A stretch of DNA of 64,000 bases, taken from Eledone cirrhosa (taxonomy: Eukaryota). The stretch's first letter is position 1. Each line of letters starts with the position of its first letter. This document shows, piece by piece, positions 47,766 to 49,409 of this stretch. Location: the NCBI GenBank assembly GCA_964016885.1, contig CAXHJY010000578.1, forward strand, positions 31,662 to 95,661, written 5' to 3'. The translations under genes were made by a program, and so were the position numbers. Under the pieces are notes generated by a model. The model was given only the letters and a program-made list of their open reading frames with translations. It was not told where the DNA came from and did not search any database.

Positions 47766-48439
47766 GAATAAATATCTAAAAATAAAAAATTGGGTATGTG
47801 AAGGGTAAGGCAGAAATAAGGGGGGGAAATAAGGAAATAAATGACATAGGAAAAGGTTTAAATATAAGGGGAGATAAGGGAGAAAGAGAATACGAGAGTA
47901 CAGAACGTGGATTCAGCAGGTAAAAAAACCGTAGTGGAAGTAAAGAGCAGGGAAGGAGTTCAAGGTGGTTGAGTTATTGTAGGAATGTCAATCCAGTTGC
48001 AGATCAGATGTGATTTCAGGTGAGGACAACATCTGAAGACCTCGGTCTTTGAGTTCAGGCAAGCAGAAGTGGCTTTCAAGTTTTGTTTCACTTGATTACA
48101 TGATCATAGAAATACGTATTGTGCAACAATAAAGGAAGTTATTGGAACTTGGCCTTCAAATGTTTTTCATTGAAATATAATATATATATATGTATCAATG
48201 AAACACACACACACATATATATATATCAATGAAAAACATATATATATATATTTGAATGAAAAACATTATATATATATTAGAATTGGTGCTCTGGAATAGC
48301 GATATATATATGAATGTATACACAGTGTATTTTGCAATACACTGTATGCTTAATTAAAAGCTTTTCGAAGACCTTACGCTATTGTTTTAGAGTAGTGACA
48401 GTCTCACTTACTTTAATTTTCAGCAAACAGGGGAGATAA

Positions 48440-48484
48440 AGCTGACAGAGCTCTGTTTCGCACTTTTTGGTGCTTATCAAAGCT
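48440..48484 (-). ncRNA. Type I hammerhead, U3-A8 core (320-bp unit)
   Basis: agct-TTGATAA-gcac caaaaa gtgc-GAAA-cagagctctg-TC-agct. Confidence 0.87.
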
Positions 48485-48722
48485 AAGTACTCCGCCTGTT
48501 TGCTGAAAATCATGAATGTTTGATTCTTATAGAATTCTAGTAATAATCAGGAACTGATTATACAGAGCGATTGCCGGTCAAGCAGAAATTGAAAATTAGA
48601 ATTGGTGCTCTGAAATAGCGATATATATATATGAATATATATATAGTGTATTTTGCAATACACTGTATGCTTAATTAAAAGCATTTCGAAGACCTTACGC
48701 TATTGTTTTAGGTGGAGTACTT

Positions 48723-48767
48723 AGCTTTGATAAGCACCAAAAAGTGCAAAACAGAGCTCTGTCAGCT
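48723..48767 (+). ncRNA. Hammerhead copy inactivated by G12A (GAAA>AAAA)
   Basis: 'gtgcaaaacagagctctgtc'. Confidence 0.7.
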
Positions 48768-49042
48768 TTATCTCCCCTGTTTGCTGAAAATTTAAAGTAA
48801 GTGAGACTGTCACTACTCTAAAACAATAGCGTAAGGTCTTCGAAATGCTTTTAATTAAGCATACAGTGTATTGCAAAATACACTATATATACATTCATAT
48901 ATATATCGCTATTTCGGAGCACAAATTCTAATTTTCAATTTCTGCTTGACCGGCAACCGCTCTGTATTATCAATTCCTGATTATTACTAGAATACTATAA
49001 GAATCAAACATTCATGATTTTCAGCAAATAGGCGAAGTACTT

Positions 49043-49087
49043 AGCTTTGATAAGCACCAAAAAGTGCGAAACAGAGCTCTGTCAGCT
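49043..49087 (+). ncRNA. Type I hammerhead, U3-A8 core (320-bp unit)
   Basis: Intact motif with palindromic stem III 'acagagctctgt'. Confidence 0.87.
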
Positions 49088-49409
49088 TTATCTCCCCTGT
49101 TTGCTGAAAATTAAAGTAAGTGAGACTGTCACTACTCTAAAACAATAGCGTAAGGTCTTCGAAATGCTTTTAATTAAGCATACAGTGTATTGAAAAATAC
49201 ACTGTGTATACATTCATATATATATCGCTATTTCAGAGCACAAATTCTAATATATCTATAATGTTTTTCATTCAAATATATATATATATATATATATATG
49301 TTTTTCCTTGATATATATATGTGTGTGTGTTTCATTGATACATATATATATATTATATTTCAATGAAAAACATTTGAAGGCCAAGTTCCAATAACTTCCT
49401 TTATTGTTG

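Follow-up and report, generated by a model that had tools for sequence, protein, structure and literature searches.

Structure of the locus

The window, by which we mean the whole 64,000-nucleotide stretch of Eledone cirrhosa DNA analyzed here, carries a short inverted array of a ~320-bp repeat with hammerhead ribozyme motifs, together with an array of 591-bp units and a Penelope-like element (PLE). The source assembly measures 3.0 Gb and AT microsatellites are abundant in it. The features to which we refer are:

39535-41890, plus strand: 5'-truncated, broken PLE with reverse transcriptase (RT), CxxxxCxxC linker and GIY-YIG-like end; member of a candidate helper family
42837-45231: 591-bp sister array, of unrelated sequence, with the same U3-A8 core and the same insertion footprint
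48088-48275, minus strand: second copy of the right flank in inverted orientation, cut short at 48088
48276-48711, minus strand: left arm of 1.36 units (unit bases 110-320, then 1-224), with the tail at its end
48440-48484, minus strand: hammerhead with intact U3-A8 consensus core; predicted cut after C17 at 48444
48709-49251, plus strand: right arm of 1.7 units (full 320-bp unit at 48709-49028, then bases 1-224 at 49029-49251)
48723-48767, plus strand: hammerhead with G12A at 48748; predicted site after 48763
48880-48906, plus strand: internal AT tract stopping at unit base 198, the "short" 3' end of the family (124 of 268 arm ends)
48907-48932, plus strand: 26-nt tail, unit bases 199-224, the second 3' end of the family (102 of 268 arm ends)
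49017-49110, plus strand: full ribozyme context, with extended stem I, UAC bulge and long distal helix
49043-49087, plus strand: hammerhead with intact core; predicted cut after C17 at 49083
49252-49445, plus strand: right flank, an AT microsatellite and then the end of an older dispersed repeat running past 49445

The two arms of the ~320-bp array lie in opposite orientation and meet 5' to 5' with a 3-nt overlap. Motifs are spaced at 319-320 bp, one per unit as the original prediction held, except that the partial inner unit of the left arm, which begins at unit base 110, has none. The inversion reaches ~190 bp into each flank and so forms a 1.36-kb palindrome (48088-49445; 91%). The 26-nt tail is usually restricted to one end of an insertion, and this locus is one of three tail/tail exceptions among the junctions with fixed ends. 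Its terminal units carry variants that are common across the arms, and one variant that is instead common within the plus arm. We rejected 3' transduction as the source of the duplicated flank, as no donor locus was found among the best 40 of 118 candidates: the flank is matched at 100% only by the two window copies, and the next match is at 91%. The simplest reading of these sequences would be a later inverted duplication at the DNA level, despite the one conflicting variant.

Read-through RNA from either strand is predicted to form a hairpin, 94% paired, that buries the intact core. With a single intact core on each strand of its 1.36-kb palindrome, the locus would be a poor source of monomers. 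The release of ~320-nt monomers that had been expected of this array stands as a statement about the family, not about the window locus, where both intact cores would be buried in double-stranded RNA.

Next to the PLE and to each of the two arrays, at 42160-42740, 45252-45410, 48159-48275 and 49252-49370, there are short (TA)n-AATGTTTTTCATTGA units. Their sequence corresponds to the end of an older dispersed repeat, and the region is therefore a nest of AT-targeting insertions. Elsewhere in the window, a broken LINE-like element with RT (6900-10054), a mariner-like fragment with HTH (27724-28308) and a 1,076-aa endonuclease-RT frame (59149-62379) are ordinary transposons.

The hammerhead motif

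A second array with a U3-A8 hammerhead core had been predicted here, and its motifs are present as described: two intact copies (49043-49087 and 48440-48484) and the G12A copy (48723-48767). The motif, AGCT-TTGATAA-GCAC-CAAAAA-GTGC-GAAA-CAGAGCTCTG-TC-AGCT, belongs to a type I ribozyme with a 4-bp stem II, a CAAAAA loop, a UAC bulge and an extended stem I; the 45-nt box originally drawn leaves out the extended stem I. In the copy at 49043-49087 the stem III palindrome ACAGAGCTCTGT occupies 49071-49082. Position 12 is G in 75 of 78 family pieces, and the G12A copy likely arose because this position (48748) sits in a CpG.

The short core pattern occurs in the window at chance level (6 found against 7.1 expected). 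A 35-nt, two-variant pattern of the full motif has 408 exact matches in the genome (G000), and the reversed control none. Nothing in Rfam reached its gathering score on the motif; both plus-strand copies align to Hammerhead_HH9 below its gathering score of 52 bits, at 24.5 and 24.3 bits (E 0.0012 and 0.0013), in a match that takes in loop II (CAAAAA) and the UAC bulge, the loops differing between subfamilies.

The likeness originally drawn to the minimal PLE hammerhead does not hold. That type needs an extra base after A9, a long helix II, a short helix I and little or no helix III, none of which describes the motif of the unit; the anatomy, with canonical-looking type I loops, 4-bp stem II and extended stem I, excludes it, and the hammerhead of the neighboring PLE is different. 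Hammerhead-like cores of the form CTGATGA...GAAA also occur in the window at 56273, 46569, 45538, 36852, 30245 and 21866, all on the minus strand; the one at 56273 passed our checks of stems I, II and III and has an AT palindrome. These other cores are probably the ends of other PLE families.

A dispersed family with covarying stems

The ~320-bp unit has 1,658 candidate copies in G000, and among the best 40 scored the full units are 92-97% identical. Subfamily units measure 316-324 bp, within the ~150-450 bp of dispersed, tandem retrozyme units, and are 82-94% identical to the window unit. The original prediction had allowed that the motif might not be conserved in other copies; a relaxed U3-A8 core pattern has 4,073 matches genome-wide against 2 for the control. 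Each unit has one type I hammerhead with conserved core and stems. The unit is non-coding (longest ATG frame 28 aa, GC 33%), and the arm maps are without LTRs. Together with the covarying stems described below, these properties bear out the proposal of an independent retrozyme family.

Covariation was assessed in all 60 loci behind the first 100 matches listed (101 motifs, 78 distinct per locus), with search patterns that held the core, G10.1-C11.1 and C15.2-G16.2 constant. Stem II pair 2 is paired in 73/78 motifs (C-G 52, U-A 21), pair 3 in 74/78 (A-U 50, U-A 21) and pair 4 in 75/78 (U-A 43, C-G 30), while stem I pair 1 is kept in 77/78 (U-A 47, C-G 29); these counts are of related sequences, so that independent events are fewer and several swaps come from one or few lineages. 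A hand-picked alignment of 20 rows has both sides changed in 7 of 15 pairs, and slid structures score far lower. The family tree (68 rows) has 11 supported branches and few lineages, and is without a root.

The core itself has been exchanged in one lineage. A C3-G8 pattern has 136 matches against 3 for its control, and 88 of the 100 matches listed resemble, by eye, one subfamily. Of 12 such loci retrieved, 11 show homology to the unit (73-91% per piece) and have the same ends, and the C3-G8 loci form a single clade with support 100/95. Mixed cores are scarce and scattered across subfamilies (U3-G8 22 matches, C3-A8 37), in searches that fixed position 7 as U for U3-A8 and U3-G8 and left it free for C3-G8 and C3-A8. 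By these sequences one sister subfamily has replaced U3-A8 by C3-G8, or the reverse, the tree being unrooted. A further small family with a canonical hammerhead (stem II GTCC-TTAATA-GGAC; for example G000:C2:30130033) accounts for 5 of the 100 C3-G8 matches listed.

All three stems covary and the U3-A8 and C3-G8 cores have been swapped, and the hammerhead is therefore under selection. Its columns vary by 5.0% against 2.5-3.0% elsewhere in the unit, subfamily sites counted; being no less variable than the rest, inserted copies therefore decay neutrally. On this comparative evidence the ribozyme is very likely active in some copies. Three of four contig sets, from runs of one study whose kind is unrecorded, were compared with one unit; in X4, the second sample (88 Mb), a 126-nt contig with variants of its own spans the cut site, in a form from which run type, strand and RNA ends are unreadable.

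Cleavage as monomer or double hammerhead

In the 45-nt motif an inactive helix, in which the 5' strand of stem I and U3-U4-G5 pair with stem III, is predicted at -13.2 kcal/mol against -7.8 kcal/mol for the active monomer. The active monomer fold of the isolated fragment thus lies 5.4 kcal/mol above the minimum, a predicted misfolding, and the 45-nt fragment could give a false negative in a cleavage assay. Nor, on the predicted topology, is the G12A copy a clean negative control in a tandem construct, because in a double hammerhead the core of its partner would cut its site; G12A has also been reported to move metal preference to zinc (PMC7151607).

The palindrome points to pairing between units. 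Pair 15.5-16.5, which in a monomer hairpin would close a 2-nt loop, is complementary in all 60 motifs with a 12-nt stem III (A-U 35, G-C 20, G-U 5), and the hairpin closing pair 15.4-16.4 holds in 47 of these 60; in motifs with an 11-nt stem III, G-C flanks one base in 17 of 18. The inactive helix is conserved too (54-71 of 71 per pair), which may explain part of the palindrome covariation. In the C3-G8 subfamily (L188-L198) stem III is ACAGAGATCTGT. In a dimer this would place tandem G-A pairs at the center; it also makes the inactive helix, to which C3 would otherwise give perfect pairing, less stable.

For 17 natural tandem pairs, energies predicted by models that ignore tertiary contacts favor the double hammerhead over two monomers in 14, with L158 and L165 as exceptions; the median above the minimum is 4.0 kcal/mol for the double hammerhead and 11.7 kcal/mol for two monomers. 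For the window plus arm alone the values are +1.3 and +11.5 kcal/mol; the window pair favored monomers when the fold took in part of the inverted arm, and the order was reversed without it. The pairing counts and folding models agree with the earlier suggestion of dimer cleavage, and we think it fairly likely that cleavage is mainly dimeric, by way of the stem III palindrome. The circular monomer is predicted to fold at -75.9 kcal/mol with 62% of its bases paired (z -6.2; none of 100 shuffled sequences reached so low an energy), and its antisense also folds well (z -4.4).

Insertion footprint and the template for new copies

Insertion ends were mapped in 135 loci, drawn from top hits, pattern hits and subfamily loci and biased to chromosome C1 and to long copies. 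Of 268 arm 3' ends, 226 map to unit bases 184-200 or 214-233 and none to the cut site (base 55), and arm 5' ends show no enrichment at the cut site (8 against 10.9). Inverted arms joined 5' to 5' occur at 97 of the 135 loci, most junctions overlapping by a few bases. Both ends lie at fixed sites in 70 of 99 junctions, and 63 of these 70 combine a short end with a tail, where 35 would be expected. The fixed AT-rich 3' ends adjoin (AT)n in 72 of 88 cases, where a target-site duplication would be hidden. Most loci are dispersed: they hold 1-7 units, stop at the fixed 3' sites, are truncated to differing extents at the 5' side and are flanked by (AT)n. The repeat thus has partial tandems, an inverted 5'-truncated arm, a one-sided tail and a microsatellite target, as PLE insertions do. 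Two fixed 3' ends, a one-sided tail and inverted arms amount to a Penelope-like footprint, which is common to the co-resident PLE and makes PLE insertion likely. That the ~320-bp repeat is a PLE-mobilized, non-autonomous element we hold to be highly probable.

The position of the 3' ends away from the cut site indicates a template RNA unbroken at the cut; in many cases this RNA extended over more than one unit. Such a template could be a circle or a linear multimer. Units differ by 1.6-1.9% within a locus and 2.7% between loci in the 316-bp set, and by 4.8-5.7% and 6.3% in the 320-bp set; minor variants common to all units of a locus number 28 in each set. At L186, a single site varies among six successive units, full or nearly so, and the partial seventh that accompanies them. 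This uniformity within loci fits rolling-circle copying of one monomer, as far as sequences can tell, with uniform linear multimers as another possible source, and we modestly favor the circular monomer as the template.

We consider it unlikely that new copies come instead from uncleaved linear multimers of long arrays, with a hammerhead that trims or is slow and with no circle intermediate. Any template continuous across the cut suits 3' ends off the cut site, and long, heterogeneous arrays do exist and could supply linear multimers. One of 17.3 units lies near 82.39 Mb on G000:C1 (L093, L094; 89% pairwise identity), and another, ~33 kb of 316-bp units, at G000:C3:114922971-114956482 (L232, L233; 94-98% identical to the query). 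Minor variants common to subsets of units (18 in the 316-bp set, 38 in the 320-bp set) also agree with linear multimers, as do the mirrored variants in the terminal units of L143 and the window locus, which go beyond what a single circle explains. However, both long arrays are heterogeneous whereas young insertions are uniform, as L186 and the 28 locus-wide variants illustrate, and there is no general mirror effect: mirror positions are no closer than others (6 against 13 loci), on which ground we rejected a mirror-copy model for inverted arms in general. Moreover, a working core has been selected in every spreading lineage, which implies that cleavage or ligation matters for propagation. The array at L093/L094 is preceded by a tRNA-like sequence, recognized by eye, which is a possible promoter. 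At L232/L233 like scores recur at regular spacing, which suggests higher-order amplification at the DNA level, from retrozyme into satellite.

A Penelope-like element as candidate helper

We take the element at 39535-41890 to be a PLE on the motifs DKG, YPSI, YVDD, CxxxxCxxC and YIGET. Pfam gave a weak RVT_1 match in one of its three window pieces and none in a 1,167-aa copy, and its look-alikes in Atlas (0.96-0.98) carry RT, HTH_animal and GIY-YIG families. It carries its own minimal C3-G8 hammerhead at 41626. The family numbers at least 150 copies, 96-98% identical in protein, with open frames reaching 1,167 aa. Two sites separated by 58 nt account for the ends of 28 of 30 copies, in most cases with (AT)n following, and a short end is combined with a tail in 5 of 8 two-armed cases. 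Between the unit and the 3' ends of the two PLE families compared we found no common sequence, and the helper is therefore assigned by footprint only. That the window's own PLE family is the helper is plausible, if a little short of probable. The frames beside the unit insertions at L002, L016, L073 and L080 resemble RT and endonuclease, and by their motifs we take them to be Naiad-like; these other PLE-type families are alternative helpers.

It is highly improbable that the unit is the pseudo-LTR (pLTR) of an autonomous PLE and that its loci are the 5'-truncated ends of that element. The architecture is indeed that of PLE insertions, a PLE ORF lies directly upstream at one locus (L063), and similarity of retrozymes to pLTRs has been reported in Xenopus. 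But upstream of the 3' end the arms continue into more unit copies, 17 and more; PLE protein lies upstream of only 2 of 67 free 5' ends, once in opposite orientation, and the 67 ends have no upstream sequence in common except pieces of the unit. The ORF at L063 is joined through a 21-nt inverted stub, that is, by insertion. At none of the 135 loci, for two PLE families, did we find a PLE ORF that runs in phase with the unit, and both PLE families compared have a different, minimal hammerhead, unlike that of the unit. A satellite-like repeat amplified at the DNA level, with the hammerhead as a dead relic, is hardly tenable: two long arrays show signs of such amplification, copies decay neutrally and the window locus appears secondarily duplicated, but two long arrays were seen, the other loci hold about 1-7 units and are mostly dispersed with the insertion features given above, and compensatory changes distinguish the subfamilies, even the youngest, whose copies are 98-99% identical, and extend to the 3-8 core pair.

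The 591-bp sister array

The absence of flanking similarity between the two arrays, on which the prediction of a separate family depended, is confirmed: the best local match between the ~320-bp and 591-bp units is 16 of 18 nt, AT-rich, at E 0.013, and by sequence comparison the units are unrelated outside the core. The features said to be common to both are likewise all found, the 591-bp family having the TTGATAA core variant, arms in inverted orientation and a stem III palindrome of 10 nt. Its stem II region is 56 nt, unlike that of the ~320-bp unit. It ends at its own bases 140 or 305, its tail measures 165 nt, and all 7 of its two-armed loci combine the two kinds of end. One of the four motifs in the window array, the 44318 copy, carries A15.1G. 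Divergence is 0.17% both within and between 12 loci, which is too uniform to inform the choice of template. The 591-bp family is, judged by its sequences, very young, would require a helper that was active not long ago, and makes the strongest candidate for activity at present.

Interpretation

Taken together, we consider it likely that the window locus is a rearranged copy of a non-LTR retrozyme family, whose tandem RNA would self-cleave mainly as double hammerheads and was probably inserted into (AT)n by the enzymes of a PLE. In tandem RNA, two 11-12-nt palindromes would pair as one stem III and each core would cut the GUC of its partner, while a lone unit would fold into the inactive helix. 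By analogy with published retrozymes, monomers would be ligated into circles. The PLE endonuclease would nick an (AT)n target, both target ends would prime reverse transcription internally on RNA uninterrupted at the cut site, one near unit base 198 and the other near unit base 224, and the two cDNAs would join 5' to 5' by microhomology.

Our most specific proposal is also a tentative one, which we hold to be less than probable: that these families are a record of Penelope retrotransposition acting on an RNA circle, with priming at two sites 26 nt apart and the hammerhead as a copy-number switch. If true, internal priming at two sites would explain the one-sided tail of PLEs, and PLEs would be named as the retrozyme helper from footprints. 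As such a switch, the hammerhead of a monomer or circle would be held in the inactive helix and would become active only when two pair as a double hammerhead; this design would have survived the exchange between U3-A8 and C3-G8 cores in a single family.

Two questions about animal retrozymes occupy the field: which retroelement mobilizes them, and whether circles serve as the template. Here two unrelated small families and a PLE with intact ORF have one precise footprint in common in one genome. The small non-coding units would suit a PLE reverse-transcription assay as simple substrates, and the subfamilies offer a set of natural mutants in which to study the dimeric cleavage of hammerheads and the core pair 3-8.

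Comparison with known systems

In the literature searched, mostly papers open to read without subscription, we found no account of this family, nor of inverted arms or one-sided tails in retrozymes. A 2020 review (PMC7761336) states, in the part available, that retrozyme repeats give no motif revealing their helper. The closest relatives in kind are the metazoan non-LTR retrozymes that Cervera and de la Pena (2020; PMC7229834) defined, with PLEs proposed as helpers. As described there, they resemble our unit in their short non-coding tandem units, a single type I hammerhead with a 4-bp stem II, canonical-looking loops, a predicted self-paired circle and PLEs in the same genome. They differ in the core, which in our unit is mostly U3-A8, and in stem III, an 11-12-nt palindrome here and 1-2 bp with a small loop there; nor did we find, in the available text on retrozymes, any mention of arms that are inverted and 5'-truncated, of a tail at one end or of (AT)n as target, as in our unit. 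Cleavage and circles were demonstrated for those retrozymes and are predicted for the ~320-bp family. The same report found that axolotl motifs cleave better as dimers, and dimeric hammerhead work is summarized in PMC6765202.

The minimal PLE hammerheads of Cervera and de la Pena (2014; PMC4209133), with a U3-A8 covariant core and about 1,300 hits in S. mansoni, share with the unit, in the accessible description, that core, a palindromic stem III, proposed dimeric cleavage and opposite-strand motif pairs 100-700 bp apart. The unit differs from them in having no extra base after A9, a stem II of 4 rather than 7-8 bp, an extended stem I and no attached PLE ORF. Insertions of EN+ PLEs (Neptune, Naiad and non-autonomous Chlamys elements such as MRC1; Craig et al. 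2021, PMC8557442) are described, like those of the unit, with partial tandems, an inverted 5'-truncated copy, an often one-sided tail, microsatellite bias and no discernible target-site duplication; unlike these elements, the unit has no RT or endonuclease and no 3'-end similarity to the two PLE families compared. Tails measure 26 nt in the unit, 58 nt in the PLE and 165 nt in the 591-bp family, against 30-40 bp in the portion of that study available.

Li, Clavereau and Pollet (2026; bioRxiv 10.64898/2026.07.22.740005) reach, in the accessible part of their preprint, the same conclusion that PLEs mobilize retrozymes, for repeats close to ours in unit size and mostly of at most 7 units. They report Xenopus retrozymes that resemble pLTRs and cleavage in vitro of 1 of 9 predicted retrozyme dimers. 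Their evidence is co-occurrence in vertebrates and pLTR homology; ours is the insertion footprint, pLTR homology not having been found here. The class (non-LTR retrozyme), the U3-A8 core and dimeric cleavage are thus already published, and the family and its details are new.
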